Shown here: piece by piece, positions 8,777 through 53,675 of the stretch
How positions within the stretch are numbered: the first letter of the stretch is position 1
Layout: every line of letters begins with the position of its first letter
Origin: a virus
Taxonomy: Duplodnaviria > Caudoviricetes
Strand: one strand, 5' to 3'
IMG/VR virus record: IMGVR_UViG_3300013099_000024
Span: 1 to 55,286 of that record
DNA: 55,286 bases
Position numbers and translations under genes: made by a program
Notes under the pieces: model-generated
Told to the model about the DNA's origin: nothing
The model's input: only the letters and a program-made list of their open reading frames with translations
Database searches by the model: none

Positions 8777-9138
8777 TGTCACAAATGTTGAAGGATGTTG
8801 TAGAGGCATTAGAAGCCGCTCACTTTAAGGTAAATTTGAAACCTCAAGAAAAGTTGGATCCATACAAAGAGTTAGTGGTAGATGTTAACGACATCTCAAT
8901 TGAGGTTGAAACTCCTCACACCTATATCATTACCTTACGATTATTCATCACATTTATTGCCATAGATCGTGCACGATTGCTGGATGTCATCGAAACTATT
9001 ATCCAGGCCATCGAAAAACATGGAGTTCCAAGTGCCGATAGCTACCAAATTACCGACGTCATGATCGACGTACCCGGTGAATTTGTAGTGGCAACAATTA
9101 GTGTTGACATAAGGGGGGTGATGTCTGTTGGTAATTAG
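8773..9138 (+). CDS. Putative tail terminator
   Basis: Size and position before tail tube gene. Confidence 0.45.
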   Translation: MMSQMLKDVVEALEAAHFKVNLKPQEKLDPYKELVVDVNDISIEVETPHTYIITLRLFITFIAIDRARLLDVIETIIQAIEKHGVPSADSYQITDVMIDVPGEFVVATISVDIRGVMSVGN

Positions 9139-10051
9139 TAGATATGTGAAGGTTGGAATGGAAGATACATTTGGTGTCGCAGTGACTCCAACTCGAGGAG
9201 TGAGGGTGCAATCAGTGGAACCTAACATTGATAGACAGCCAATTTTTGATGAGACGATCGAGGACTTTCTACCACCTGATGCTGTTGGAGGACCGCTGAA
9301 GGTTGGTCTGTCGATGGAGTTGGTGGCAAGGCCGAATCAGATTACGGAGATTCTGCAGGCACTGATGGGAAGTTCAACAGTGACCTCAACTAGTGAAGAC
9401 GTGTACAAATGGGACTTTACGTTAGGCACTCCGCAATCGATGACGGTTGAGGTTGGAGATCCGTATGAGACATTACAGATCTATGGTGTAGGCGTCAACA
9501 GTGTGGAGTTTACATTCGAGGCCAGGGAGTTTGTGAAGATGTCAGTAGATTGCATTGCCAAGAACTATAAGCAGTCTTCGTTTTCGGAACCAACATACTC
9601 CAATGATAAGCCGTTTGTCTTCTATGAAGCACAGCTACGTGTCGATGGATCCAAAGTAGCAGGTACAAAGAGTGTGTCATTGACGGTTGATAGAGGTATT
9701 GCAGACGACGAATATGTGTTGGACGATTTCACACTCAATGCTCTACGACCAGAGAGAACAGAGATTACGGGAAGAATGACATTAACGGAAGACGAGATTG
9801 CAGAACTGAGAAGAGCACTATATGGCTCTACAACTGCTTCCTCGATCGGGCCAACGAATGACGTGGGTTCTGTGCAGTTGACGATCGTGTGTGATAGGGG
9901 TGACTACCAACTGAAACTTAATGCACCTATTGCCGTGTATACGACAGGTTCATACAGTGTCTCAGGGCGCGATAGGATTGATCGTGAGATTGAGTTCAAG
10001 GTGGTTGGAGATTTCACGATAACGTTGGTTAACAATGTCCCGGAGGTTTGA
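9128..10051 (+). CDS. Major tail tube protein
   Basis: YVKVGMEDTFG N-terminus, beta-rich, precedes chaperone and tape measure. Confidence 0.75.
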   Translation: MVISRYVKVGMEDTFGVAVTPTRGVRVQSVEPNIDRQPIFDETIEDFLPPDAVGGPLKVGLSMELVARPNQITEILQALMGSSTVTSTSEDVYKWDFTLGTPQSMTVEVGDPYETLQIYGVGVNSVEFTFEAREFVKMSVDCIAKNYKQSSFSEPTYSNDKPFVFYEAQLRVDGSKVAGTKSVSLTVDRGIADDEYVLDDFTLNALRPERTEITGRMTLTEDEIAELRRALYGSTTASSIGPTNDVGSVQLTIVCDRGDYQLKLNAPIAVYTTGSYSVSGRDRIDREIEFKVVGDFTITLVNNVPEV

Positions 10052-10383: not shown

Positions 10384-10570
10384 ATTCCGCGTTGCTATCG
10401 GCGTTCTCGCGACACGCACGGGCAAGCGACCCAGTGAACTTTTCGAGTGGAATGATCCAGAGGACTGGATGGAGAGACTAATGTTTGATATATATGTCAT
10501 CGAAGCACTACTACAGGAGGAGGCGAGGCAATGGCGGAAGGTAGGATCAGGTTTATCTTCGAGGCGATAG
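10379..10570 (+). CDS. Frameshift extension of tail chaperone (gpGT-like), +1 frame
   Basis: Open +1 frame HEFRVAIGVLATRTGKRPSELFEW..MERLMFD fills the gap to the tape measure gene; no obvious own start. Confidence 0.6.
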   Translation, partial: HEFRVAIGVLATRTGKRPSELFEWNDPEDWMERLMFDIYVIEALLQEEARQWRKVGSGLSSRR

Positions 10571-12267
10571 ATAAGTCGGCTGCTGTCATACGTAACATAC
10601 AGCGGAGACTGATGTCCCTTAGACAGCCGATGCCAGAGTTAACGCCGTTAGCGAGATTTGGTTTTAAAGAATTAGAGCGCATGTACAATCGACATTATAA
10701 GCGATGGGAACGTTTGAATGAGAAAGCTACCAGACAATCTGTTCGTACACGTGATCTGTTGGAGACTCAAATGGCAGCTATATCACAAGCATTGCAGAAC
10801 ATGGAAGAAGTCGGTTTGACTGCTGCAGGCTACTTCTTTGAGAGATGGGATGCATATAGTAGGCGATATAGGGTCTCTACAACAGAAAGGATTGCTAGAC
10901 CGTTGAGAAGATTGTCGAGGTCATTTGCACCATTATGGTCGGCAATGTCTGCGTTTGCTGCTAATGCTGATAAGTACATGAATCGTGCAGCATGGAACTT
11001 TACATGGGCAACACTGTCGATGATGGGTGTACTGTGGAACTTCCAGTGGATGTTGTCGACATTTATTGATCCGTTGAAGCAAACGTCACAGGGATTGATG
11101 AATTTTTCAGATGCAGCATTTGAGGTCGCAACCTGGTTAGCATATGCATCAGCGATGGGAATGGATTTCGCAGAGAAACTGGGTGGTACAGACGTAGCAG
11201 TTAGGGATGTTGTCGAAGCAGGAATGTTTCTACAGGCTACGTTGGCAGGTATTAGTGCAATGCTAATGGTAGCACTGGCAAGAGCACTAAAAGTACCTGG
11301 TGTAATGGATGCGATTGAAGATGCGATTGAAGCATGGATAGATGTGCTGACAGATCCAGAAATTATCAGGGCGATTGCAGATATCATTAAGGGTATGGCT
11401 GAGATGGCTGTCGTGATAATACCACAAATAAGGGACTCTCTACCATTAATCAAAATGTTAATTCAAAAATTCCTGGATGCCATACCCACGCTGTTATGGA
11501 TCTTGAGTATCATAACTGGAATGACTCCTGGTTTGAAAAATTTATCCAAACACATTTCAACCATTAACAATACGATAAGCACAGCTCAATCAACATGGGA
11601 ACAACTAGGGATGACACTAGGCTTTTTGAAGGTCGGCTTCATTCTACTACAACCTGCTATGTTACCACTTATGTTCATATTCTCTATGCTAACGGCAGTA
11701 ATAGTTCAGGTTATGATATGGGCAAGAGCACTAAAAGGTGTATGGAGTTTGCTGAGTGGAGTTGCAGGCAGATTAGGTATGTCAGTATCGCAACTGCTAG
11801 GACGTTTGCTAGGTCTTGCCGGTGGAATCTTCTTTGTGGTAACGGCTATTAGTGATATGATTCAACATGGAATAACGTTGCAAAATGTCATCACTGCACT
11901 GATCGGTGTAGGTTGGATTTTAGCTTCCATCTTCGGAGGACCGGTTGCTTGGGCAATAATGGCTGTAGTTACTGCCGTTAAACTTGTCATTGATTACTTC
12001 GGGTGGTGGGATGAGATTACTCAAGCTCTACAATCCACGTTCCAAGGATTCCTGGAGGTTTTACAGTCGGTCTATGATTGGATTAGTAAGTTAATAGGTC
12101 CGTTGTATTCGGTAGCGTCGCTATTTGGGCTTGGAGGTGGAGGACCGACAACAATGACAATATATCAGACTGTAAGCATTGGAACTATACGCGAGACGGC
12201 TGACAAGGATGAAGTCATCCGAGGGTTAGCACGTGAATCGTATAAAGCATTGTGGGGTGGTTACTGA
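10531..12267 (+). CDS. Tape measure protein
   Basis: IRFIFEAIDKS N-terminus; long helical/hydrophobic protein. Confidence 0.8.
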   Translation: MAEGRIRFIFEAIDKSAAVIRNIQRRLMSLRQPMPELTPLARFGFKELERMYNRHYKRWERLNEKATRQSVRTRDLLETQMAAISQALQNMEEVGLTAAGYFFERWDAYSRRYRVSTTERIARPLRRLSRSFAPLWSAMSAFAANADKYMNRAAWNFTWATLSMMGVLWNFQWMLSTFIDPLKQTSQGLMNFSDAAFEVATWLAYASAMGMDFAEKLGGTDVAVRDVVEAGMFLQATLAGISAMLMVALARALKVPGVMDAIEDAIEAWIDVLTDPEIIRAIADIIKGMAEMAVVIIPQIRDSLPLIKMLIQKFLDAIPTLLWILSIITGMTPGLKNLSKHISTINNTISTAQSTWEQLGMTLGFLKVGFILLQPAMLPLMFIFSMLTAVIVQVMIWARALKGVWSLLSGVAGRLGMSVSQLLGRLLGLAGGIFFVVTAISDMIQHGITLQNVITALIGVGWILASIFGGPVAWAIMAVVTAVKLVIDYFGWWDEITQALQSTFQGFLEVLQSVYDWISKLIGPLYSVASLFGLGGGGPTTMTIYQTVSIGTIRETADKDEVIRGLARESYKALWGGY

Positions 12268-12620
12268 TGGCAATCACGATTACGGATAGGACGAATACGT
12301 TGACGTTGAAGGTGAAGAGGATAATGGTCGAAGAACGTTGGAGACAGAAGAATATTCCGTTGGTGAACAAGGATCCAATGATCATTGATTTAGGTAGAGA
12401 GGAAAAATCGGTGGAAATCGAAGCTGTTGTATTCTCGTCGTCTGATCTACAAACGTTCTATGCGTTAAAAAATCCGGTACAAGTGACCGATTCCACGTAT
12501 CCTGAGATTGAAACAGGCTATTGGAGGCTATACGAGAGGCGTAGCGATCGTCGTCCCGGATGGGTATCGGCGTGGGTAATACGGTTTCGAATGAGACGTG
12601 ACTACTATCATACGGGGTGA
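12267..12620 (+). CDS. Distal tail protein-like
   Basis: Follows tape measure; PMIIDLGR motif; likely start MAITIT. Confidence 0.5.
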   Translation: MAITITDRTNTLTLKVKRIMVEERWRQKNIPLVNKDPMIIDLGREEKSVEIEAVVFSSSDLQTFYALKNPVQVTDSTYPEIETGYWRLYERRSDRRPGWVSAWVIRFRMRRDYYHTG

Positions 12621-12626
12621 TTGGTG

Positions 12627-15152
12627 ATGACGTGGAAGGTACAGAAGTGGGATGGATCGTCGTGGGTGGATGTTGCTTTTTCGGATTTGAGTGTCAGCAA
12701 ATCATTGGACGAGTTAGATTCAGCAACAATTACGATGCCTAAGACGGAAAATGTAGCGCGGGGTGATCTGATACGAATTACCTATGATACGACGACAGTA
12801 TTTGAGGGTTACGTACAAAGAATTGTTCGTCGTGTAGATGTCATGGAGGTTCAATGTCTTGAGAGGGCAGTTGAGTTACGCAAATCGATTGTCAATTATG
12901 GAGGATCATATACGCATACATGGGTTAATTTGACGGTAAACGATATCGTTGATCGTATACTGGACAGTACTTCATGGTCTCGTGGCAGTGATGATGCGAC
13001 TATTATTCCAGCAATCAGCTTGGAATATGTAGACAGACTGACAGCATTGTCGAAAGTCATCAAGGATATGCGAGGACTACACATGTGGTTCGAGGGAACG
13101 AAGGTCTATTTTGGTTCATCACGGACAGACCGCACGTCAACGATCATACGTTACCAGGAGATTGAGGATGATGAAGACGAGACCGAGATGTATGACAAGA
13201 TCATCGTCATTGGTGGAGGCAGTGTAAACAGGCACATAGTTGCGGAACGAGGTTCTGGAGACAAGGTTGGGATCTTTGAGTATCCAGATGCTGTTAGTCA
13301 GGAGGAACTGAATAAGATTGCGGATACGTTGTATGATTACTATTCGACGGAGCGTAAACGTGTGTCAGTTACGATGCCATTATGGCCAGAGGTGAATCCT
13401 GGAGATTTGGTGAACATTGATGGTACTACATACATCGTGTATGATGCACAGCATGATTTGGCGACGACGAGAATATCGGCAGGATATTATTCGCCGTCGT
13501 TGGGTAGGATCTTAAGGCAGTTGCGTAAGGTTCAGCAGGCAGTAGGTCGTGTGACGCAGGGCGTAGTAGAAACGTTTGAGATTCCACTTGGCTATCAGCA
13601 TGTAGGGTCGGGGTCGCCGGCGAGATGGAACATTTCGGTTCAGGATAAGGTGTTGTCGGCGAAGTTGAGATTGAAGTTGACGAAGTGGAAGAAGTTGACA
13701 GACATTCAGAATGCTACGACAGGTGTTTCTGTGAACAGTGGTTCTGCGAATATACAGTCGAATACGACGGGAGTGTCTATCGGGACAGGACATGCGAATA
13801 TAGAGTCATCTACTACAGGCATAACGGTTAGTTCAGGGAAGGCCAACATTGAATCGTCGACTACAGGAATAACCATTAGCTCTGGACAAGCCAACATAGG
13901 TTCTTCGACAACTGGCATTACAATTGGATCTGGTCAAGCTAACATAGGATCATCTGCTACAGGAATCACCATAGATTCGGGTGAAGCTGAAATTCAATCA
14001 AATACAACAGGAATCACATTGATGAAAGGTTATGCTGACATAGATAAGGCTTCTACCGGAATCTCAACAGCCTTTGGAGAGGCCGACATATCGAGAGAGT
14101 ACACGGGTGCTTCCATAATGGCAGGAGGTGAGTCAGGAATTGTAGTTGACTACGTGGATATTGAACCGTGGGAAGATTTACCATACGACCATAATTGGAC
14201 TTTCTATGGACCTGACGGATATTCGTTTGTAATTTGCGTGGTTAATCTGTTAATACATGCGCCCAGTGATAGCGGAACTGATGGAATGTGCTATCTCTAC
14301 TGGTGGAACGGATGGGAAGGTGAATGGGAAGAGAAGGATCGTCATAGGTATGTCATCAGGACGTCGGATGAATACGCACATGTAACACTGGTGGGAGTTG
14401 CACGCGGTTATAGTGGAGATACTGCAGATTGGAGGGTGAGGATTACAGAGTCGAATGGTGGTGAATTGAGGTGGCTACACATTAGGTGCTTCTTTGTAGA
14501 GCTTCATGAACATAGTTTGGATGAAGGTTCGGGACATACACACTATGACAGTGGGCATAGTCATGGCATTAATGATCCAGAGCATGATCATGATGATTTA
14601 GGTCATAGTCATGGGGTAGATGATCCTAAGCATGATCATATTGATTCAGGACACAGTCATGGATTGTCTGATCCGCAGCATTCACATACAGATAGCGGAC
14701 ATGACCATGGAGTTTCAGATCCAGGACATGGGCACTCGGATAGCGGTCATAGTCATGGGACGAACGATCCTGGGCATGGACATGAAGACAGTGGTCATGA
14801 GCACGGGGTTTCGGATCCTGGTCATGGGCATTCAGATAGTGGTCATGAACATAGTTTGAGTGATCCTGGACACAATCACACGGATTCAGGTCATGGACAT
14901 GGAATTACGGATCCTGGACATGCACATGGGATAGACAATGATGCTACAGAGTTGTCATTGTATCCATCGAATGTCAATGTAGTTTTCAATGGGTCGACCA
15001 TCGCAGGTCCATATTCGGGAGGGGCAGAAACGACGATTGAGATTGACATTACGGATTACCTTACTGAGGGTAATCATGTTTTGGAAATTACTTCTGATAC
15101 TGCAGGCGGTATTGAGGGTTCGTTAGTAGTTGAGAAATTCGTTAGGAGGTGA
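12627..15152 (+). CDS. Tail hub fused to HxH-repeat needle/central fibre
   Basis: Hub-like N-terminus; nine 16-aa TTGI repeats; 18 HxH motifs. Confidence 0.7.
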   Translation: MTWKVQKWDGSSWVDVAFSDLSVSKSLDELDSATITMPKTENVARGDLIRITYDTTTVFEGYVQRIVRRVDVMEVQCLERAVELRKSIVNYGGSYTHTWVNLTVNDIVDRILDSTSWSRGSDDATIIPAISLEYVDRLTALSKVIKDMRGLHMWFEGTKVYFGSSRTDRTSTIIRYQEIEDDEDETEMYDKIIVIGGGSVNRHIVAERGSGDKVGIFEYPDAVSQEELNKIADTLYDYYSTERKRVSVTMPLWPEVNPGDLVNIDGTTYIVYDAQHDLATTRISAGYYSPSLGRILRQLRKVQQAVGRVTQGVVETFEIPLGYQHVGSGSPARWNISVQDKVLSAKLRLKLTKWKKLTDIQNATTGVSVNSGSANIQSNTTGVSIGTGHANIESSTTGITVSSGKANIESSTTGITISSGQANIGSSTTGITIGSGQANIGSSATGITIDSGEAEIQSNTTGITLMKGYADIDKASTGISTAFGEADISREYTGASIMAGGESGIVVDYVDIEPWEDLPYDHNWTFYGPDGYSFVICVVNLLIHAPSDSGTDGMCYLYWWNGWEGEWEEKDRHRYVIRTSDEYAHVTLVGVARGYSGDTADWRVRITESNGGELRWLHIRCFFVELHEHSLDEGSGHTHYDSGHSHGINDPEHDHDDLGHSHGVDDPKHDHIDSGHSHGLSDPQHSHTDSGHDHGVSDPGHGHSDSGHSHGTNDPGHGHEDSGHEHGVSDPGHGHSDSGHEHSLSDPGHNHTDSGHGHGITDPGHAHGIDNDATELSLYPSNVNVVFNGSTIAGPYSGGAETTIEIDITDYLTEGNHVLEITSDTAGGIEGSLVVEKFVRR

Positions 15153-15158
15153 TAGAGA

Positions 15159-15392
15159 GTGGCAGAAGTGGTAGATGTAGAGAAGATTCCAGGTGGATAT
15201 ACGTTGGTGGTGAAGACCAAGTGTGGAGAGGAAATTAGAGTGAATTTCAATCGGAAGCATTTCGAGAAGTTGACTGATGAAGAGCTGGAGAGAATCTTGC
15301 GCGAAGTCGACGAACACTATTGTGCTGAAGATGAAGAACCTGAGCATATTAGGACGAAAATTGCGGCAATTAAGGGACGGAAAGTTGAGTAG
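15159..15392 (+). CDS. Hypothetical protein
   Basis: ORF with GGAGGTGA RBS. Confidence 0.6.
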   Translation: MAEVVDVEKIPGGYTLVVKTKCGEEIRVNFNRKHFEKLTDEELERILREVDEHYCAEDEEPEHIRTKIAAIKGRKVE

Positions 15393-15426: not shown

Positions 15427-15945
15427 ATGGTGAATGGTCTGGAGAAGTTGGGTGTTACAGATAGCTTGGAAGTACTACACATCAGGAATGGTAAAGTGAT
15501 CGACAGGAGAGAAACACTAGGACATTCGAAGTTGGCAATATGGTTCTCGAAGTTGCTCGCAAAACTGGGAATCAAGAGATACACGATTGATTTGATCACG
15601 AATGCGGGCAAGGCTGCTATCGCCGAGATGATTGGAGGGAGATTTACCTACGTTGCTATTGGAACAGATGATGGTTCGACGCTTGCACTTGATGCCTCGA
15701 ATACGGCGTTAGGTAATGAGGTAGCTAGACAAGCAGGAACAGTGTCTTATGAGACGACGAATGTAACTAATGATACAGTACACATTGAAGCTACGTTTAC
15801 CTTCGACTCCGATACTACTGTACAAGAATCCGGAGTATTTGATGCAGATACCGGAGGTACGATGATATGTAGGCAGACGTTTCCAGCACTCAACATGCAG
15901 GCAGGAGACCAGTTGGTGATGATTTGGAAGATTACAGTACAGTAA
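15427..15945 (+). CDS. Tail fibre/baseplate-associated protein
   Basis: ITNAGK..YVAIGT..TALGNEVAR..ESGVFDA.TGGTM pattern of fibre N-terminal domains. Confidence 0.65.
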   Translation: MVNGLEKLGVTDSLEVLHIRNGKVIDRRETLGHSKLAIWFSKLLAKLGIKRYTIDLITNAGKAAIAEMIGGRFTYVAIGTDDGSTLALDASNTALGNEVARQAGTVSYETTNVTNDTVHIEATFTFDSDTTVQESGVFDADTGGTMICRQTFPALNMQAGDQLVMIWKITVQ

Positions 15946-16629: not shown

Positions 16630-16745
16630 TGGCGTTGATTGATGATGTGAAGTCGTTGAAGGAACAGGGAATGACCGTAGCTCAGATTGCGGAGCAGTTG
16701 GGTATACCGTATTTTTTGGCAAGAGTTTTGTATAACAGAGTATGA
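16629..16745 (+). CDS. 38-aa HTH-like microprotein (not in ORF track)
   Basis: MALIDDVKSLKEQGMTVAQIAEQLGIPYFLARVLYNRV; start and stop overlap both neighbours. Confidence 0.55.
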   Translation: MALIDDVKSLKEQGMTVAQIAEQLGIPYFLARVLYNRV

Positions 16746-17812
16746 CGGTCGTCGTAGGGCGTAGATGGACGACGTGGAAGAAGGACAATTATAGGCTTTA
16801 TGTTTGGGTGCCTGAGGGTAAGCAGTATGTGGAAGTGTACTCTTTTGGTTATGATGGTTTCGACAATAACGGTGGTGGAGCGTGGGAGAAATACATCAAT
16901 ATTCCAATTACGACGACACCCAGCGAGTACGCACAGTATCAGGTAGTCATTGATGCTACAAATGTTACAGTTCACTCGGCTGATGGAACACAGAAAGCTC
17001 AGGGTGCTGTTGCAAGTGATTTCTGGGCAAATGTAAAGTCGGATGGTTTGGATGTCAGGGTGTTTGATCAGGCTAAGGGGCAGTTGTATTTCTGGATTGA
17101 AGAGTTTGATTACAGCAATAAGAAAGCGGTGATTTGGGTTAACTTAACTGCTGGTTCAAGCGAGTTAAACATCGCTTATGGGAATCCGAGTGCGACTAAA
17201 TCAAGCTACGAAAATGGAGAGCAGGTTTTCGAGTTCTTTGACGATTTCGAAGGTAGTGAGTTAAATACAGCGAAATGGGATACAGCAGATTTATACGACA
17301 ATGCGGATATAAATGTCAGTAACGGAATTCTAACTTATTACAGAGGAGACACTACACTTAGCAGTATTAAAACTCTAAAAACATTTGCTCCAAACACAGT
17401 TCTGTATGCTAAAGTTTATTATGACACAAGCTATAATTATCCTGCAGAGTTTGGCTTCGCAGACTCACAAAAAACAGTGCCTGACAATTCGGCGGCAGTA
17501 GTTAGAACAACGGAGGACACATATGGTGCATACGCTTCGTCTGGAGGGACATATAGTGTATCGGAAGGATTGTCGTTGGATACTGGATGGACGAAATATA
17601 TGCTCAAATGGACAGATAGCGAGGTTGCCATGACTGATGGTGTTAATACACGAAGTGTTACAAGCAATATACCGACGTTCGAGCTACCATTGCGTTTAGG
17701 GAATTTCCTAGGCGGTGGAACGGGGAATGTTTACTTGCAATACGACTACATTTATGTTGCTAAGCTCGCCGACCCTGCCGACTTCGGAACTTCAACTATT
17801 CGTACGTTCTAA
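16742..17812 (+). CDS. DUF2341-domain adhesin / receptor-binding protein
   Basis: DGLDVRVFD..LYFWIE..AVIWV..YGNP..VFEFFDDFEG then a lectin-like beta domain. Confidence 0.75.
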   Translation: MTVVVGRRWTTWKKDNYRLYVWVPEGKQYVEVYSFGYDGFDNNGGGAWEKYINIPITTTPSEYAQYQVVIDATNVTVHSADGTQKAQGAVASDFWANVKSDGLDVRVFDQAKGQLYFWIEEFDYSNKKAVIWVNLTAGSSELNIAYGNPSATKSSYENGEQVFEFFDDFEGSELNTAKWDTADLYDNADINVSNGILTYYRGDTTLSSIKTLKTFAPNTVLYAKVYYDTSYNYPAEFGFADSQKTVPDNSAAVVRTTEDTYGAYASSGGTYSVSEGLSLDTGWTKYMLKWTDSEVAMTDGVNTRSVTSNIPTFELPLRLGNFLGGGTGNVYLQYDYIYVAKLADPADFGTSTIRTF

Positions 17813-17821
17813 GGTGATATT

Positions 17822-19438
17822 ATGCCTAACGATGAATATGGCTACTATGTAGGTCAATACACCGATGAATTTGGATATGCTGCAATCAATGGACTAAATG
17901 AGTTTGGTTTCTACTCTGGGGTATTGCAGAAAATCCTCGGTGAACAGCTGATTGTTAGTGATACCATGTTACGATCGGCATCATCATCATACACTGAACT
18001 TCTCACTTTTTCCGATACTCCCATGCGTAATGTACAACGTGCATCTATTGATACACTCTCATTTGTTGACAACTATACTCGTCAGCCTATCGGTCTTTAC
18101 GCCGATACTATCATTCTGTCTGAACTGTTATCGCGGATCGGCTCACATCTAGTGACTGAATCTCCTACCGTCACGGATACCACAACACGGAATGCTGCGC
18201 GAACTTTTAGTGACTTCTTTACAGTCGACGACATCGCAGCCAAGATGTCCACGTGCATGCAGACTGATATGATTACCATTCAGGACAGCTTCTGGCGTTC
18301 TGGTAAGCATGTCATAGAGCAGATAGTTAGCATTGTTGATTCGACCGCTAGGACAATGGCGAGAATGTTTAGCGAGTTTGTCACAACAATCGATACAAAA
18401 ATCCGAAATGTTACATCAACGTTGGTTGAAGTGATAGGACTTTCTGACGTAAATATACGTGGCAAACTTGTGTCACTAGCAGAAGCAATCAACATAACTG
18501 ATGCATTACGACATGCTGCTACAGTTGTACGTTCGGAGGTAGCGGATGTTGTAGATACAACAATGCGTCGTGGATTACATTGGTTACAGGAAATGCTATC
18601 GATTGCAGATGCTCGCATAGTAGCACGAGTATTGCAAGATGGCGTGACGTTAACGGATGTATTGTTCAGACAGTCATGGATACGGCTGGTGGAGATGATG
18701 AGAACAATAGATCAGCAGCTAAGCAGAGCGTATGCTGCACTGAAAGATGCGTTGAGGACAGATGACGAATCATTGAAGATTGCCGAATACAGCAGGAAGG
18801 AATCGGTTATGTTTGTCGATCGTGGTCAGCGTGATATAACAACGAGTAAGGTGGATGTTGTACAGGTTGTGGATGTACGTTCAACAGGAGCCTATAGAAT
18901 GGTTGATGAAAGGGTTGGTGTAGTAGATGTACTGAGAGAGTTTGTGGGAAGGTTGACAGCGGAATTGTTAGGTATTGTGGAAGCCGTTGCCAAGCGATTG
19001 AGCATGATACGTGAGGAGACGACGTTGCCTACGGATGTGCGATATGCGAATGTAAAACGTAGTGTGAGCGAAGATGTAGGTGTTTCAGATTCATTGAGAC
19101 ATATCGTCGGAAAGTTATCCGTAGAGCTGTGCAAAATTGGTGACTTAACATCAAGATGGTTGAGGACAGTGTATGAAGAGATTATGATAATTGTTGAAAA
19201 ACGAGTTGCAAATGTTAAACGTAGGCTCAACGAGGTTACACGAGTGTTTGGAACTGTAGCATCGTTATTGGGACAGTATGTACGGTTAATGTTGGAGTCA
19301 TTGACTATTGAAGATAAACTAGATAAGGCAATGACAAGGTTAACGGACGAAACAATAGGTATAAAAGACACCATAACTCGACATGTTAAGTTAATCTACC
19401 GCTACATATACAGTCGGTTACGGAATTGGAGGGGATAG
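17822..19438 (+). CDS. 18-aa-repeat fibre-like protein
   Basis: Periodic (D/E)xhxhxDxxxR units along most of the length. Confidence 0.55.
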   Translation: MPNDEYGYYVGQYTDEFGYAAINGLNEFGFYSGVLQKILGEQLIVSDTMLRSASSSYTELLTFSDTPMRNVQRASIDTLSFVDNYTRQPIGLYADTIILSELLSRIGSHLVTESPTVTDTTTRNAARTFSDFFTVDDIAAKMSTCMQTDMITIQDSFWRSGKHVIEQIVSIVDSTARTMARMFSEFVTTIDTKIRNVTSTLVEVIGLSDVNIRGKLVSLAEAINITDALRHAATVVRSEVADVVDTTMRRGLHWLQEMLSIADARIVARVLQDGVTLTDVLFRQSWIRLVEMMRTIDQQLSRAYAALKDALRTDDESLKIAEYSRKESVMFVDRGQRDITTSKVDVVQVVDVRSTGAYRMVDERVGVVDVLREFVGRLTAELLGIVEAVAKRLSMIREETTLPTDVRYANVKRSVSEDVGVSDSLRHIVGKLSVELCKIGDLTSRWLRTVYEEIMIIVEKRVANVKRRLNEVTRVFGTVASLLGQYVRLMLESLTIEDKLDKAMTRLTDETIGIKDTITRHVKLIYRYIYSRLRNWRG

Positions 19439-23364: not shown

Positions 23365-24131
23365 GGTTTATCACCTTTCACAAAGTATCCTCCTTGCATT
23401 GATCCAGGAACAGGCGTTTGCGCTTGATCGTAGTGCACTTCGACATGAGGCAACCGTAGCTCTTCTCTCTTATCGTCATGCATCCAGATGATCGATCGCT
23501 TCTTCCTATCGAAATAGAACCTTGCCCCTGGGTTCTCGTTGTTTATGATTATATGATAGCCTCCTCTCGTTTCTGTGATCCATAGTACATCTGATTCTAG
23601 GCAATTGACTACTTGCTGTAAGACATCCTGGTCCTTCACATCTATATCCACCAAGTACACTGGTTTCCTTGTCCTACTGCGACAAATACATGAGAACCAA
23701 TGTCGATCCAAATTCTTAAACTTCTGTGCCACAGTTGTACTCTGCTTTACAAACATTGCTTCAACCAGGCTCTCAGCTATCAACTTCTCGTATGCCTTCA
23801 ACACTGACTTTGGATGGAGATCCACATATAATGTCATCGCCTTTGCGGGGATAGGTTTTCCTGTCTTGTAGTCCACATAGATGTTCTTCACATATCCTAA
23901 CCTCTTTAGTCTACGCCAGACATACGAGAAATCATCGTGCTTCAATATCTCATATGCCAGCAACTCCTCGCTCCTCGAGATGTTGGCATACTTCTTCCTC
24001 GCAACGATAACTGCCGTAAGAACCTCATCACCAGTCAACCTTGGCCAGACTGCCTTGTAGAACTTCCTAAACACTGACTTCCCTTTCTCAGTCAGTAACA
24101 TTAGCATCACCTCAATTCCTTTCCACGCCAT
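23361..24131 (-). CDS. Putative AEP-superfamily (primase-like) protein
   Basis: LVDIDVKD and ETRGGYHII resemble AEP motifs I/II; near MCM. Confidence 0.45.
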   Translation of the reverse strand: MAWKGIEVMLMLLTEKGKSVFRKFYKAVWPRLTGDEVLTAVIVARKKYANISRSEELLAYEILKHDDFSYVWRRLKRLGYVKNIYVDYKTGKPIPAKAMTLYVDLHPKSVLKAYEKLIAESLVEAMFVKQSTTVAQKFKNLDRHWFSCICRSRTRKPVYLVDIDVKDQDVLQQVVNCLESDVLWITETRGGYHIIINNENPGARFYFDRKKRSIIWMHDDKREELRLPHVEVHYDQAQTPVPGSMQGGYFVKGDKP

Positions 24132-24904
24132 GCCACTGCCACCACATTATGCTCATGAATGCTCTCCTCATGCTCAGCTACAATCACCCAGTCATCGATC
24201 CAACTCCACTCATTTACTACCTTCACTGCCTTTCTTGCGACATCCTCTACAAACATCGGATGATCTTCTGCCTGTTGACACCAATATAGTTCTTCTACCC
24301 TCTTCATCTCGGCCCATGGCATCAACTTCAGTTCGTCCACCAAATCAGTAATCATCCACGAAGTATACTGAGGGAGCGATTCATTGAACTCACTCAACCG
24401 CACAGTAATCGTCATCCGACTGCGTTGCATGTGTGGAATACCTCTTCCTGTAGCTCTCACCATCTCCAGACTACACGGACATACGCTGGCATATGGTAGG
24501 GTAAACGTCAGATACCATCTACAGTTGTCCTGGAAACGGCGGCCTTCGAGAACAAAATTCACAGTGAAACGTGGACCAACGGCATAGTCGATGATATAGG
24601 ACCATTTGCACTTCCAGTAGGTATTGCTGCTATCATGAGTGGAGGCTAATTCCTCAAGGAAGTTATCGTCGCACGCAATTTCCTCACCTTCCCAGTCGAG
24701 AAGGACGCCTGCCAATCGACTCATATGAATGCCCTTTCGATCGGTGAGACTGACATAGGCAGATTGCCTAGTGATCACAGGAGCTCCATCCCACGTGCGT
24801 CTGACGTTGAGTCCACGGATGCCGACCTTTTGGAGAGAAATGCCGCTGTCGTCCGATTGGCTTGCGTAGTCAGGCAGAAACTTTACCGATGACAAGACTA
24901 TCAC
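24107..24904 (-). CDS. folE2: GTP cyclohydrolase FolE2/MptA family
   Basis: LQKVGI, KGIHMSRL, SVCPCS, HMQRS, FVEDVAR, ESIHEHN. Confidence 0.92.
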   Translation of the reverse strand: MIVLSSVKFLPDYASQSDDSGISLQKVGIRGLNVRRTWDGAPVITRQSAYVSLTDRKGIHMSRLAGVLLDWEGEEIACDDNFLEELASTHDSSNTYWKCKWSYIIDYAVGPRFTVNFVLEGRRFQDNCRWYLTFTLPYASVCPCSLEMVRATGRGIPHMQRSRMTITVRLSEFNESLPQYTSWMITDLVDELKLMPWAEMKRVEELYWCQQAEDHPMFVEDVARKAVKVVNEWSWIDDWVIVAEHEESIHEHNVVAVAWRGKELR

Positions 24905-25563
24905 CTCCAACCTGCTGTGATATGCAACCTTGGTGAAATTCTCGTCTGCACTATCCCATTCTCCCACATCCACTGGCGGATACCTTCCAAACTTTTCGCA
25001 ATCTCCTCAACCGTCGTGCCTTGCGGCATGAGATACACATTCGGACTATCGATCAACTCCAAATATGGTTCCAACGTATCCATCGAATACCTTCCAATTC
25101 CCCATCGTTCTCCATCCGACACAATCTTGACAAACAACTTCCTCTTATGCTTCCCTCTCCTCACCTTCTTCAACCACCACTCGAGATCTCCCAGCCTCTT
25201 CGGTGACACCACAATGCGGCTAAACAACCCAAAATCAAACCTCTTCACCGTTCCATTCGTCTCCAACCCAACATACTCCGACCAGTCCCATTGCCACCAA
25301 CGAACTAACAACTCTCTCAACTCCTTCCACTGTAACAATGGCTCACCACCCGTGACGATGAGATGAGGATTCGCATAGTCCCATAGTTGGCGGAGTATTT
25401 CATCAACAGACATAGTCGGATGACGACTAGAGTTAGACCACGCGTGTTTGGAGTCACATTGTTCACAACCAAGATTGCAGCCCCTTAACCTAAGGAAAAC
25501 TGCCCTCAGCCCGATGTCAGGTCCCTCCCCCTGAATACTTTCGTATATCTCGGTAACTTTCAT
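24901..25563 (-). CDS. queE: 7-carboxy-7-deazaguanine synthase (radical SAM)
   Basis: SIQGEG, GCNLGCEQCDS, TGGEPLLQ, ETNGT, VSPK, PRLH. Confidence 0.95.
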   Translation of the reverse strand: MKVTEIYESIQGEGPDIGLRAVFLRLRGCNLGCEQCDSKHAWSNSSRHPTMSVDEILRQLWDYANPHLIVTGGEPLLQWKELRELLVRWWQWDWSEYVGLETNGTVKRFDFGLFSRIVVSPKRLGDLEWWLKKVRRGKHKRKLFVKIVSDGERWGIGRYSMDTLEPYLELIDSPNVYLMPQGTTVEEIAKSLEGIRQWMWENGIVQTRISPRLHITAGWR

Positions 25564-25591
25564 GCCTATCACCTCAAAAAATAGGAAGACA

Positions 25592-25993
25592 CTATGGACC
25601 ATCTACTGGAATGGAATACGTCGCTGACTGCTTCTCGGACTCCCAGATGGTGACTTTTATGTAAGAGATCTGTTTGCCTGCAACATTAATCACTCTGTCT
25701 GCTATCCACTTTGCTATGCACTCACAGGTGGGGTCTGATTGAAATCCTATGACAGAATCCAATACCTCAAACAGAGGGTCGGATACATTTAGCAATGTCT
25801 TGTGATCCAACTGTTGGATGATCTCTTTGATACATCCAAAATCCACTACCATTCCTGTCTGCTTGTCTGGAACCCCTTCTAACTCGACTCTCACCTTCCA
25901 CGTATGTCCATGCAGATTTCTACACTTCCCGGGATGCTTCATCAACCTATGTGCAGCCGCGAACGAATCCTCAACAACTAGTCTCATCCTCAA
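25592..25993 (-). CDS. queD: 6-carboxytetrahydropterin synthase
   Basis: FAAAHRL, KCRNLHGH, VDFG, LDHK.LN, PTCE, WES. Confidence 0.95.
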   Translation of the reverse strand: MRMRLVVEDSFAAAHRLMKHPGKCRNLHGHTWKVRVELEGVPDKQTGMVVDFGCIKEIIQQLDHKTLLNVSDPLFEVLDSVIGFQSDPTCECIAKWIADRVINVAGKQISYIKVTIWESEKQSATYSIPVDGP

Positions 25994-32774: not shown

Positions 32775-33418
32775 TCACCTCCTCCACAACGGGTCCTCTA
32801 TTCTAGCCATCTCAAAGGCCATCTTCCTCTCAACACATGCGGAACACTTACCACAGGGTTTGCGTTGACCTTCATAACATGTCCATGTTTTCTCGAATGG
32901 AACACCCAGTTTGTGGCCGATGGCAACAATGTCGGCCTTCGACTTATACAAAAATGGGGTATGAATCACTGGTTCTTGCAGATCGTTGCCTATCATCAAC
33001 GCCAAATTCAATGCCTGATAGAATTCAGGTCGACAGTCAGGATAAGTCTCCCAATCATTTCGATGTGTAGCAATATATACTCTGTAGATATGACGACTCA
33101 GTGCATAACCTACCGCAATCGACAATAGAATCATATTCCTATTCGGCACGACGGTAGATCCTTGACCATTGACCAACAGAGACGATGACTGGAACACAGT
33201 CTTCGGCAACTTTATGACTTCATGCTCAAATCCCAACTGCTTGGCTACCCATTCTGCGCATCTGAGCTCCTTCCTGGCCTTCTGACCGTAGTCGAACGTC
33301 AGAGCAATCGCACTGTAGCCTCGATTCTTCAGCCAATAGGCCAACACTGTGCTGTCCAAGCCTCCAGATAGTAGCATCACGGCATCATATTTGGGGTATG
33401 TAGATGTGTCGTCAGTCA
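32775..33418 (-). CDS. queC: 7-cyano-7-deazaguanine synthase (canonical)
   Basis: SGGLDST, FDYGQ, VPNRN, YPDCRPEF, TCY..CGKCSAC. Confidence 0.95.
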
Positions 33419-34228
33419 TAAGACTTTCACCTTTGCTTTCTCCTCGACAAACTTCACCAATTTGTCCCACGTACAATCGACTATTGTGCCACTAATATTC
33501 CAGGCCCTGCACTTCACAATCGTAAACTGTCTCACTGGTGTTGTCTTACCAGGCGGTATCATCACCTCAGCCTTCATCACAATGTCCAACCAATGCTCCG
33601 TATCTTTCTGCCAGCGACTCCTATAGCGACCGGTAGGCGTACCATCTTCGGTAAACACCTCCTGTACCTTCCCGGTTAATACGACATGCCACTTCGATCT
33701 CAACAGCTTGTAGATCATCTGTAAATACCTCTTATTTGCCCTTCCCCACTCGAACCGTGGTACTTCCCCACTTTTCGTCCTGCGCCTAGCACCTTCTTCC
33801 TCCAACCAGACTCCGATCCACTGCCAAATATCAGACGCCGAATCGATGACGATCGTTCCTCTCACATCCGAGTGATCCTGGACATACTTGACGACTGCCT
33901 TCAGTGCCTTCTCAACCTCCTCCAACGACTGTATCGGATCAGGTTCCATGGTCTCAGGATCAAGCTGTAGAGCCTCAAAGATGTAGACCTTATCCCTTTC
34001 CTCTGGGGGTACAGCATTGTCGACTACTAAGCGACTGCCAAACTCAGTGTCAATAACGAAAATCGGTTTGGGAGCCGTCAGTGCGAAGTGGCTTTTACCA
34101 GAACCAGGCAAGCCGTACACACCCACCTTTAGGCCTTCGACTGGAGGCAATTCTGTTGATGGCTTGAAGAACTCATCAACATTCGGGACTTCTAACTCCT
34201 CCTTCTTATTCCATGCCACTAACCTCAC
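33416..34228 (-). CDS. Sak4-like AAA ATPase
   Basis: GLPGSGKS, IDTEFG, IVIDS. Confidence 0.75.
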   Translation of the reverse strand: MRLVAWNKKEELEVPNVDEFFKPSTELPPVEGLKVGVYGLPGSGKSHFALTAPKPIFVIDTEFGSRLVVDNAVPPEERDKVYIFEALQLDPETMEPDPIQSLEEVEKALKAVVKYVQDHSDVRGTIVIDSASDIWQWIGVWLEEEGARRRTKSGEVPRFEWGRANKRYLQMIYKLLRSKWHVVLTGKVQEVFTEDGTPTGRYRSRWQKDTEHWLDIVMKAEVMIPPGKTTPVRQFTIVKCRAWNISGTIVDCTWDKLVKFVEEKAKVKVL

Positions 34229-34904
34229 CTCTCAACACAATTTCGTAATCATTTATGCCTTCTACCCCAACCTTCTTACCTAACACCTCTCTCTCAACAC
34301 ACGCCTGACACTGTTTACAGGGCCTAACAACATTCTCATCAACAATTGGCTCATAACACGTAAGTGTCTTCCTCCAATCCACACCCAACTCCAATGCTCT
34401 CCTAACAATCTGCGCTTTATCCCATTCGACGAACGGCACATAGACCTTGATGTTTGTCGTATAGTTGTGATTTAACAACATCTGCAATGACTCTGCGAAC
34501 CAAGGCGTTATATCCCAGTATTCGCGGTATGTCGTGTGTCGGTGGATAGCTAATCCGATGTAGATCTCGTTGAGATCATTCTCGATTGCAAAGAACTCCG
34601 CGTACACTGCGAGATAGACTGCGAACAGCAAATTCCTACTCGGAAAATACTGCGTGAGACCGTAGCGTTCATCCATCTTCTGTTTGACTACCTTCCTACT
34701 TGGCACATGATCCCTCAGATCCACAACGATGGGTTCGAGGTCTAATGCCTCATAGTGTAGTTCCTTACAGATCTGAGCCTCCAGTAGGCTGCGTTTTGAA
34801 TACACGAAGTTGACGGGATGAACTACGAAACCCTCTTCCAGTGCATGATACAGTAGTGTCGTGCTGTCTAAACCTCCACTGTGAGCCAAAAATAGGTGTT
34901 TCAT
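34206..34904 (-). CDS. QueC paralog 2 (divergent)
   Basis: SGGLDST, FPSRN, YWDI replacing YPDC, TCY..CKQCQAC. Confidence 0.85.
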   Translation of the reverse strand: MKHLFLAHSGGLDSTTLLYHALEEGFVVHPVNFVYSKRSLLEAQICKELHYEALDLEPIVVDLRDHVPSRKVVKQKMDERYGLTQYFPSRNLLFAVYLAVYAEFFAIENDLNEIYIGLAIHRHTTYREYWDITPWFAESLQMLLNHNYTTNIKVYVPFVEWDKAQIVRRALELGVDWRKTLTCYEPIVDENVVRPCKQCQACVEREVLGKKVGVEGINDYEIVLRGEVSGME

Positions 34905-37569: not shown

Positions 37570-37886
37570 TTTCTCACCTTAAACCATCCACCGCTCATTT
37601 GTTCGAAAACATCATCCAATGACTTCAACACACCCATCAGTTCTCGTCTCCCGAAAAACATCCTATGACCCCAATCGACTCTCACCAAGTGACCTTCTCT
37701 CATCAGCCGATTGAGATAATATCTCACCAACCGATGCTTTTCAGGAATACCCAACCATTCGGCGACATCAGTAGCTTCATACAATAGATCCAAATCAAAC
37801 CTACTTAGGCATACATATAGGACTACCCAACGATTGAATCGTTTAGACATCGAACTCCACAACGTCCTCAATCTGTGCTCTCTCAA
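37566..37886 (-). CDS. Winged-helix DNA-binding protein
   Basis: ATDVAEWLG..VRYYLNRLMREGHLVRV; start probably 37850. Confidence 0.6.
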   Translation of the reverse strand: MREHRLRTLWSSMSKRFNRWVVLYVCLSRFDLDLLYEATDVAEWLGIPEKHRLVRYYLNRLMREGHLVRVDWGHRMFFGRRELMGVLKSLDDVFEQMSGGWFKVRK

Positions 37887-38373
37887 AGGCTTCCTTGCGT
37901 CTTAGACACGATGAACATCGTCCACAATGAACGTCCCATCCCTTCTCGCAGCTGTAGGTCAACTCGAATGGCACATTCAGTTGTTGTCCCAATCTCACCA
38001 CATCAACTGCTGACATCCCTGACAATGGCGTTTCGACAGTAGTCCTGAAGACTTCTCTCGCCACATCGCTGTATGCCTTACCATCTCCATAACAGCCGAC
38101 ATACACCTTACCATCAGGCATTGCACGATCGATGCCAATTGCCATCAACACACCAGGAACGAACCTCTCGATTGGAGGCATGATGACTACAATCTCAGTG
38201 ACAACGTCATAGTACTCTCTCAGTGCTACAATGGATTCTCTCTCACGCTCTGCAGTTCTCTGACCGTAGTTCACCCAAACAGCCAGGATATTGTCACGAC
38301 CATATTCCTCGATCATCTTTGCTAACAACACTGTACTACCGATGCCTCCATTGAACAAAATCACATGGCGCAT
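37843..38373 (-). CDS. QueC paralog 3 (degenerate)
   Basis: NGGIGST instead of SGGLDS, VNYGQ, TYSC..CGRCSSC; central region shortened. Confidence 0.8.
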   Translation of the reverse strand: MRHVILFNGGIGSTVLLAKMIEEYGRDNILAVWVNYGQRTAERERESIVALREYYDVVTEIVVIMPPIERFVPGVLMAIGIDRAMPDGKVYVGCYGDGKAYSDVAREVFRTTVETPLSGMSAVDVVRLGQQLNVPFELTYSCEKGWDVHCGRCSSCLRRKEAFERAQIEDVVEFDV

Positions 38374-42530: not shown

Positions 42531-42682
42531 TCCAATTCGTCGACAAGCTCTTCGCTGTAGGGTAGTACTACGGCCTCTCGATCACCGTCACAATAGCCTC
42601 CGAATGCTTCCATGAAGTCGTAGATGTCCATTAGGCTGGCTACTTCATAACCTACCAGGATGCGTTTCATAACAGTCATCAT
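42494..42682 (-). CDS. Hypothetical protein
   Basis: Acidic ORF overlapping both neighbours. Confidence 0.5.
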   Translation of the reverse strand: MMTVMKRILVGYEVASLMDIYDFMEAFGGYCDGDREAVVLPYSEELVDELECRGIIFTVEVM

Positions 42683-43412
42683 CCCTCAATTCCTCAGGCC
42701 ATTTGATACATGGACGAATCCAACATAAGAATCTTTTTACTTCCCCTTTACCTCCCCTCAATCTCAAATTTTCCATCCTAACTTTAGGATGTGATACCCA
42801 GCGCTTTACATCGAAATTATGTTGACACAATATGCTTTCTACTACATCCATTAGCTTGGTATTTGTATTACATACGACGTGTACATACCATGAATATCCA
42901 TTGAAGTAAATGCATCCTTCGCTCTCATATAGACCTCTCACAAATGCTCCTTGTAAATCAGGAGACCATCGTAACGGTTCGTCTATGGGTGTTTGTGTTA
43001 ACCGCTCATACAATTGTTTGCTGTAGCAAAACACTCGGTATAGTTTGTATTCATACAATTTCGGATTCAGACCAAGCCGTTTGAGCACATCTCTAACGCT
43101 ACATGCAAACTCGTAATCTTTGACCTGTAATTGAAAGCCATAGCTGTACATCTCTTCATTTCGAAACACTGAACCGTCCCCCAAATACACTCCGAAGATG
43201 TATGCCAAATCCTCCGTTATCTCGTCTGGTAATTTCTTCTCACATCTTAACCTTGTCGCCTCTCTACGATTGCGTCGAGGTATGCCATACATAGCCATCC
43301 AATCCCAAACTGTAGTGTACGATACTCCCAATCGTTTAGCTATCTGGTTGATACTCAAGCCTTCTTCCCAATACATACGATATAGGTCCTCCTTCGAAAT
43401 TCTCCTCGTCAT
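42645..43412 (-). CDS. Free-standing HTH + LAGLIDADG homing endonuclease
   Basis: LSINQIAKRLGVS HTH; LAYIFGVYLGDGS and FVRGLYESEGC. Confidence 0.88.
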   Translation of the reverse strand: MTRRISKEDLYRMYWEEGLSINQIAKRLGVSYTTVWDWMAMYGIPRRNRREATRLRCEKKLPDEITEDLAYIFGVYLGDGSVFRNEEMYSYGFQLQVKDYEFACSVRDVLKRLGLNPKLYEYKLYRVFCYSKQLYERLTQTPIDEPLRWSPDLQGAFVRGLYESEGCIYFNGYSWYVHVVCNTNTKLMDVVESILCQHNFDVKRWVSHPKVRMENLRLRGGKGEVKRFLCWIRPCIKWPEELRDDDCYETHPGRL

Positions 43413-53499: not shown

Positions 53500-53675
53500 G
53501 CTGTAGGCAGTCTGGAGGCCGTGTGGTAGGCCGAGATGTCAACGAATATGCCGATGGAGTTGTATGCTGACGATCGGATGGCCTTACGCCAATGGATGGA
53601 AGGCCTTAGGACTACCGTCATGCAATATGAGCGTAGGCCGGCCAAGGTGTGACCAAGCGTAGGAGGTGATGTGTG

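Follow-up and report, generated by a model that had tools for sequence, protein, structure and literature searches.

A tail-hub protein with two length-matched repeat tracts as a candidate gp37-type hairpin needle

The stretch of DNA analysed here (the window, 55,286 nt) is the IMG/VR virus record IMGVR_UViG_3300013099_000024, with an estimated completeness of 70%. It contains at 12621..15152 (+) an open reading frame (ORF) of 843 amino acids (aa) in which two long repeat tracts follow an N-terminal region resembling a tail hub; the repeat region, 13699-14930, corresponds to aa 360-770. The ORF has two alternative starts, a TTG at 12621, which abuts the stop of the previous gene, and an ATG at 12627, which is used in the database copy (its twin P0002, 841 aa, starting two codons later).

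The protein can be divided into a hub, an outgoing tract (A), an insert, a second tract (B) and a C-terminal domain of 74 aa. Tract A (aa 359-502) comprises nine units of the type xANIxSxTTGITVxSG when printed in a 16-aa register, the two units closest to the insert being the most degenerate, and tract B (aa 626-769) comprises nine units of the type xDSGHxHGxxDPxHxH. In tract B there are exactly 18 His-x-His (HxH) motifs (positions 629...767), which after an initial gap of 10 residues follow each other in a strict 7, 9, 7, 9 alternation. Since spacings of 7 and 9 add up to one printed unit, the true layer is about 8 residues and each tract is a series of 18 half-units of two alternating kinds; in tract A these are 18 half-units alternating between 'ANIxS' and 'TTGITV' types. 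Histidine makes up 36 of the 144 residues of tract B, with 29 D+E and a single K or R. Aromatic residues (W, F and Y) are concentrated in the insert (17.1%, 21/123, vs 2.1% in tract A and 0.7% in tract B). A preliminary description of this DNA, made from the letters alone, had reported nine 16-aa repeats, an aromatic-rich insert and about nine further 16-aa repeats with 18 HxH motifs, and we find the same, with an insert of 123 aa and the units read in printed register. Its equal count of nine and nine is correct for the 16-aa units of each tract; with a structural unit of about 8 residues the count becomes 18 and 18 layers.

At the DNA level, Tandem Repeats Finder detects periods of 48 and 96 at 13788-13976, 14556-14662, 14670-14846 and 14766-14869, and these four arrays, all within the tracts, are the sole rows scoring at least 80 in the 55-kb window. 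The identity between units is 42-71% in tract A and 35-75% in tract B. Because units only 35-75% identical in DNA have kept their motif, the repeats must be old and are maintained at the protein level. This bears on one alternative, that of a histidine-rich region that is disordered or low in complexity and lacks a defined fold, which would be in line with the only Pfam matches of the relatives' tracts, sub-threshold ones to the Plasmodium histidine-rich protein. The strict 7/9 phasing, the conserved G, D and P positions, the upkeep at the protein level despite the low identity of the units and the coupling to a second, histidine-free tract (see below) all argue against it, and we consider it very improbable.

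Protein searches with the C-terminal 504 residues retrieved 24 and 112 proteins at E<=1e-3, named here by P numbers. We set aside 23 of 124 proteins, namely the twin P0002, 11 judged on inspection to be unrelated repeat proteins and 11 with 0-3 HxH. The relatives fall into two classes. In the hub class, a hub is followed by an S/T/G/I/V-rich tract A, an insert of 8-551 aa, an HxH tract B and usually a 74-aa C-terminal domain (YPSNV...). In the Collar class, a Collar domain (PF07484; matched in P0010, P0013, P0101 and P0113) is followed by an HxH tract, from which a short loop leads to a tract of the 'TTGITVNS' type and then to a short C-terminal strand; a few members have the tracts in reverse order (P0026). 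The window protein aligns with Collar-class fibres in both tracts, with their order swapped. Against P0010 the alignments have E 4e-24 (tract B with B) and 1e-7 (A with A), and against P0076 E 2e-14 (B) and 2e-5 (A). It is strongly indicated that the two limbs are members of the two tract families found in gp37-type needles; at the base of the needle, the window protein has a hub where those have a Collar.

Both classes have cultured representatives. The Collar class is found in 107 cultured phage records, where it is annotated as tail fibres and stands for side fibres of myo- and podophages, and a tblastn search with P0044 places the hub class in 17 phage records, including Enterococcus phages phiEf11, EFC-1 and IME197, Bacillus vB_BhaS-171, Caldibacillus CBP1 and 'Halomonas' YPHTV-1. 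In phiEf11 the Tal gene comes after the tape measure and a tail protein; its product, which passes both PF06605 and the TIGR01665 model ('phage tail spike protein'), is the protein that defines phrog_4311, a family labelled 'minor head protein'. Used alone, the window protein gave no match in cultured phages (tblastn) or viral contigs, and among metagenome contigs it found only two N-terminal fragments (L001 and L002); a search with its N-terminal region returned only 3 proteins. The ESM Atlas gave no usable lead, and the model of the hub-repeat protein itself has a predicted template modelling score (pTM) of 0.34.

With regard to the N-terminal region, the ORF matches Pfam YQBQ-like (PF24032) with 21.7 bits, under the cut-off of 27, and the hub domain matches the baseplate hub family phrog_4930 at E 0.004, below threshold. 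There was no match of the ORF to PF06605 or in NCBIfam, and no curated hub model passed. Over its positions 134-281, the aligned profile of 18 hub-class relatives (A1) matches 9g8s_q at E 7.3e-6. This is the 'XkdQ-related protein' present as 3 chains in the solved phiCD508 needle reconstruction. Two of the aligned relatives, P0097 (48.5 bits) and P0044 (102.9 bits), pass Pfam Prophage_tail PF06605. The idea that the repeats are fused to a hub, already put forward in the preliminary description, is supported by these three lines, and they strongly indicate that the N-terminal 358 aa are a Tal-type tail hub carrying the repeats as a C-terminal fusion.

The C-terminal end leads to the same family. 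phrog_4311, the family of the phiEf11 ORF21 tail-tip protein, matches aa 725-841 at E 2.3e-9, and the 74-aa C-terminal domain is conserved throughout alignment A1. The insert (aa 503-625) has no family match and is the least conserved non-repeat part of the protein: with P0003, P0005 and P0125 it shares 44, 25 and 10% identity, where the hub reaches 59, 47 and 43% and the C-terminal domain 55, 56 and 36%.

If the two tracts lie side by side, their lengths should be coupled among relatives. We measured 27 hub-class proteins by one fixed anchor-and-aromatic-window rule, in which tract A extends from a hub-end anchor chosen by eye to the first 12-residue window with at least three of W, F, Y, C and P, and tract B is a chain of H-x-[HTNSPG] units; P0005 was dropped for its mixed limbs, leaving n=26. 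This rule replaced a motif regular expression, which under-counted degenerate units, and a chaining score, which over-called beta-rich domains. In the 26 proteins tract A spans 4-228 aa and tract B 3-224 aa, and the two lengths follow each other closely (Pearson r 0.962, slope 0.91, intercept 12 aa). The mean |A-B| is 13 aa (n=25, with the near-duplicate P0028 out), as compared with a mean of 70 aa and a minimum of 37 aa in 10,000 permutations. The length of the insert is uncorrelated with that of tract B (rho -0.19). The coupling is also seen between sister proteins: across the seven cherries of the hub-domain tree the changes in A and in B correlate (r 0.97, p 2.4e-4), with the same sign in 6/7 and no change in tract B in the seventh. 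P0006 and P0009, in which 405 of 505 aligned residues are identical, are separated by one gap of 36 aa in each of the two tracts and by two gaps of 1 aa. For the cultured phages, limb lengths taken by eye are ~75 vs 77 aa in YPHTV-1, ~70 vs 59-66 in phiEf11 and ~49 vs 39-48 in BhaS-171. A related trend is found in the Collar class (n=60), where the length following the HxH tract correlates with the length of that tract (r 0.71, slope 0.85, intercept 67 aa) after excluding 10 of 70 proteins, nine with tails of less than 80 aa and P0108, whose tail is of the C-terminal-domain type. The preliminary description had named uncoupled repeat counts in homologs as what would speak against pairing; the counts do co-vary, with P0007 (by eye) as the exception. 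We regard it as strongly indicated by these comparisons that tracts A and B have coupled lengths, as expected if they run side by side.

The direction of the chain is addressed by three relatives, P0097, P0094 and P0044, in which limbs of 44-228 aa are joined by merely 8, 23 and 33 aa. With joints this short, the limbs, if they touch, must form an antiparallel hairpin. These results also bear on a serial, unpaired fibre, in which tract A would build a shaft of three chains that carries the insert as a knob, followed by tract B as a second, metal-bound shaft and by the C-terminal domain as the knob at the far end, giving about twice the length and no hairpin. Many phage fibres are indeed linear strings of shafts and knobs. 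Such a fibre leaves the equal lengths unexplained, with a slope of 0.91 over 3-228 aa, as well as the joint changes in sister pairs and the matched 36+36 aa indel of P0006 and P0009; its knob is missing in the relatives with a joint of 8-33 aa, and the solved Collar-class relative is a fold-back arm according to its authors (PMC10966104). We consider the serial fibre quite improbable.

A second kind of coupling concerns the type of the units. In P0101 and P0113 all HxH units are 7 residues apart and the partner tracts are made of 7-residue 'AHANIQP' units, while proteins with 8-9-residue 'DPGHxHGV' units have 'TTGITVNS' partner units. P0076 and the window protein alternate both kinds of unit within both tracts; in the latter 8/17 spacings are short and 8/17 units are of the AN type. 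In a set of 59 proteins, those richer in short HxH spacings tend also to be richer in AN(I/V/L) units, both taken as shares (Spearman 0.43, p 7.5e-4); exceptions are proteins of 'HNHTQNAHNH' units, which have no AN-type partners. The mixed needle of P0005 has two HxH on either limb, outgoing and returning, and by eye every one of them faces a 'TGITV'-like unit. This layout fits an arrangement of one HxH strand per layer, without fixing the direction of the strands.

Collar-class P0013 matches PDB entry 8kec_A, 'Long tail fiber', at E 1.4e-11 over the Collar region and the HxH tract (5 HxH, ~44 aa) and, separately, over the partner tract (5 units), and profile A1 matches the HxH tract of 8kec_A at E 1.1e-4. 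The comparison with T4 made use of the receptor-binding tip of gp37 (PDB 2XGF). In the T4 record this tip (aa 785-1026) contains a Collar domain (44.8 bits) and seven HxH, three outgoing (883, 915 and 929) and four returning (966, 980, 989 and 998), the latter spaced by 9-14 residues. A BLASTP of P0013 against the gp37 tip was not significant. As described in PMC12609058, PMC7291167 and PMC6957217, the tip consists of a collar, a six-stranded antiparallel needle and a head at which the chain doubles back, and its histidines hold seven iron ions, one per HxH layer. The picture of gp37 given in the preliminary description (HxH motifs, seven Fe, doubling back, six strands) agrees with these three papers. 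8KEC is gp34 of the Anabaena myophage A-1(L), a long tail fibre arm 180 A long that its authors call similar to T4 gp37 (PMC10966104).

From all of the above we propose, at a probability of roughly 0.7 and from sequence comparison, that the gene encodes a siphovirus-type Tal-like hub whose C-terminal 485 residues form one axial hairpin needle of the gp37 type. Three chains would leave the trimeric hub as tract A, their 123-aa inserts would form a three-lobed head, and the chains would return as tract B between the A strands, giving a six-stranded antiparallel needle as in T4 gp37. Each of ~18 layers of ~8 residues would set one HxH per chain on the three-fold axis, so that six histidines per layer could bind a single ion of Fe or Zn. 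The C-terminal domain of 74 aa would then end beside the hub, where gp37 has its collar, the head would contact the host, and the length of the needle would be tuned in evolution by indels striking both limbs equally. The trimer, the ~18 metal sites and the receptor-binding tip are features that we infer. For 144 residues per limb the needle would measure roughly 35-40 nm, taking 2.5-2.7 A per limb residue from the A-1(L) arm (~50 residues per limb, 180 A including the collar).

Several observations weigh against this proposal. In the hub class, the length rule misfits P0031, P0034, P0047, P0089, P0096, P0125, P0111 and P0020 by 20-61 aa; in those of the misfits that were examined, a tract was truncated or overrun by the measuring rule. 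In the Collar class, the HxH tract of P0007 is by eye ~36 residues longer than that of its close relative P0107, and the partner tails are equal; P0007 comes from a 1.8-kb contig, where repeat collapse or an assembly error is possible. The DNA identity matrices of the units reveal no mirrored duplication history (rho 0.22 in reversed and 0.11 in the same order). The distance of the unit kinds from the loop differs on average by 0.21 in an antiparallel and 0.39 in a parallel arrangement, a weak preference for the antiparallel one (n=17, Spearman p 0.052). As to the links with known folds, the window protein has no Pfam Collar domain (PF07484), matches no PDB chain at E<=1 when used alone and reaches only a non-significant E of 0.04 by BLASTP against the T4 gp37 tip, and the match of A1 with 8kec_A has a high compositional bias and a weak tract-A stretch (i-E 9.9).

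The occupancy of the metal sites is a matter of its own. The needle could be paired as proposed and its histidines could lack a full metal column: they might sense pH or metal and so loosen the needle once it is at the cell surface, or metal might occupy only some of the layers. The strongly acidic character of tract B (29 D+E, 1 K+R) would be compatible with this, as would relatives P0032 ('GHxTG') and P0004, which keep the needle with one His per layer. Each of the 18 HxH motifs in the window protein is intact, and T4 has iron in every HxH layer (PMC6957217, PMC12609058), so that we find a needle with an incomplete column unlikely. In P0032 and P0004 many B units are degenerate ('DPGHxTG', with one His instead of two) and the limb lengths are still matched; the fold may accordingly not require a full six-His site in each layer.

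As for the function of the tip, the head is the best candidate for host contact because it is the fastest-diverging non-repeat part and varies from 8 to 551 aa among relatives. The same device could instead be a rigid, envelope-piercing spike, an explanation compatible with the proposed structure. Its position on the hub and tail axis recalls the iron-loaded HxH spike tips that P2, phi92 and phiCD508 carry on the tail axis (PMC4901313, PMC11948020), and other fibre-like genes lie downstream at 15427-15945 and 16742-17812. A tip made of a 123-aa aromatic-rich globular domain offers no sharp apex, and its fast divergence and variable size are those of host-contact modules; we see the spike as possible and the less probable function. 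P0124 and P0048 keep the hub and the C-terminal domain with only 1-2 HxH and have inserts of 551 and 196 aa. Judging from these sequences, the needle can shrink almost to nothing as the head grows.

Compared with T4 gp37, the proposed needle shares HxH motifs at ~8-residue layers. In T4 the HxH are spread over both limbs, as in the relative P0005, whereas the window protein has 18, all on the returning limb, within a regular 16-aa repeat that has a histidine-free partner repeat; its needle would sit on an axial hub with a larger head, unlike the T4 needle, which is part of a side fibre. Both tract types are common to the window protein and to 8KEC and the Collar class. Most of the latter run from an HxH tract through a short loop to a TG tract on the Collar base of a side fibre, whereas the window protein runs from a TG/AN tract through a 123-aa head to the HxH tract on a hub, and with 18 layers instead of the 5 of 8KEC. 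A further close system is that of siphophage tail-tip proteins (Tal) with a C-terminal extension, in particular the phiEf11 ORF21 family, which has in common with the window protein the order tape measure, distal tail protein and Tal, a trimeric-hub-type N-terminus, a C-terminal fibre and the 74-aa C-terminal domain, in line with the general Tal architecture described in PMC13517437, and in which an S/T/G-rich tract is also followed by an HxH tract ('IPSHTHxV') of matching length. It differs in that its limbs are joined by a short loop without a globular head and its outgoing tract is of the 'GGGTTxTSS' type. A literature search covering few subscription journals found no account of an HxH hairpin in these Tal proteins. 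The spikes P2 gpV, phi92 gp138 and phiCD508 gp63 are likewise axial, hub-borne devices, and their trimeric state and metal-binding HxH are known and here predicted; they consist of one six-His site with a sharp apex on a separate OB-fold protein, in contrast to a multi-layer needle fused to the hub, and the window protein has no sequence match to them among PDB chains.

HxH needles as such are well known, and a scaling between HxH motif number and needle length has been suggested in a 2025 paper (PMC12609058). In the same literature search we found no account of a hub-fused needle, of 18-26 layers or of a grammar of two layer types. If the proposed model is true, the gp37-type iron needle known from side fibres would also serve as the axial fibre of non-contractile tails, including those of cultured Enterococcus and Bacillus phages, where the gene is annotated as 'structural protein' or, wrongly, as 'minor head protein', and the fold would extend to 18-26 metal layers. 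T4 has six fibres per virion. At seven ions per T4 fibre (PMC6957217), the predicted load of ~18 ions per virion would be below that of T4. The sequence rule that emerges, equal limbs with one HxH strand and one small-residue strand per layer, would predict needle length and metal load and recognise needles without a Collar domain. The family would provide a natural series for relating tail-tip length to the host envelope, and the needle a modular, rigid protein rod of tunable length as an engineering scaffold.

A more far-reaching version, which taken jointly we regard as doubtful, sees the hub-fused needle as a length-programmable, metal-zipped ruler with a two-limb, two-type repeat code. 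Here the 7-residue 'DSGHxH' unit would pair with 'ANIxS' and the 9-residue 'DPxHxHG' unit with 'TTGITV', and paired indels would set the reach of the tail tip in ~2 nm steps, from 1-2 up to 26 layers, in Tal proteins of Bacillota siphophages and in those of a virus lineage that may be archaeal. Once the metal column is lost at the cell surface, the needle would unzip and the hub would open for the exit of DNA.

The features of the locus are collected in Table 1. The order of tube, tape measure, 122-aa ORF and hub-repeat gene fits the placement of the last as a hub. The 122-aa ORF has no match in Pfam, PHROGs or NCBIfam. Among the ORFs scanned in the window, none was seen to encode a sheath, for which reason the tail looks non-contractile. 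The 77-aa ORF directly behind the hub gene might help in assembly; small ORFs of 57-68 aa also trail the homologous Tal gene in phiEf11, YPHTV-1, BhaS-171 and CBP1, and sequence similarity between it and the small ORF of phiEf11 is absent.

Table 1. Coordinates of the hub gene, its segments and neighbouring genes in the window
Feature	Position	Strand	Basis or proposed role
Tail tube gene	9128-10051		Pfam Phage_tube_2, 74.4 bits
Tape measure protein gene, 578 aa, two genes before hub	10531..12267	+	Weak PHROG tape-measure matches (best E 1.2e-4); position behind tube gene
122-aa ORF in distal-tail-protein (Dit) position	12252..12620	+	Position only
Hub (Tal / gp27 / XkdQ-like) domain, aa 1-358	12621..13694	+	Pfam, PHROG and profile matches
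Tract A, nine 16-aa units, aa 359-502	13695..14126	+	Proposed outgoing limb
Aromatic-rich globular insert, aa 503-625	14127..14495	+	Proposed head/tip
Tract B, nine 16-aa units with 18 HxH, aa 626-769	14496..14927	+	Proposed returning limb
C-terminal 74-aa domain (YPSNV...EKFVRR) and stop codon	14928..15152	+	phrog_4311 match
77-aa acidic ORF directly behind hub gene (may not belong to the device)	15159..15392	+	

Elsewhere, the window encodes an HK97-type capsid protein, and no tRNA genes were found in it. The sole lead to a host is the partial relative P0005, which is labelled as coming from a Thorarchaeota metagenome-assembled genome. In the tail-fibre region, a 538-aa protein (17822-19438, +) contains a degenerate 18-residue repeat with a super-period of 54, rich in R, D, V and T, and has no family match. 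A 7-deazaguanine synthesis set (24107-25602, 32775-34904 and 37843-38373, -) comprises a FolE2-type GTP cyclohydrolase, a radical-SAM protein and three QueC-like ORFs, the third of which matches only the end of the profile; by its gene content this set suggests modified DNA bases. A LAGLIDADG protein is encoded at 42645-43412. The terminase-like ORF at 53673-55286 (+), which runs off the end of the window, has a sub-threshold match to an intein splicing domain (28.3 bits, cut-off 35.8) that precedes a weak match to the GpA ATPase. Finally, the window shows a strong GC skew that is linked to the strand: it is positive over 1-22 kb, turns negative over 22-52 kb, is about zero in the last bin (52-54 kb) and tracks gene direction along positions 1-55286.

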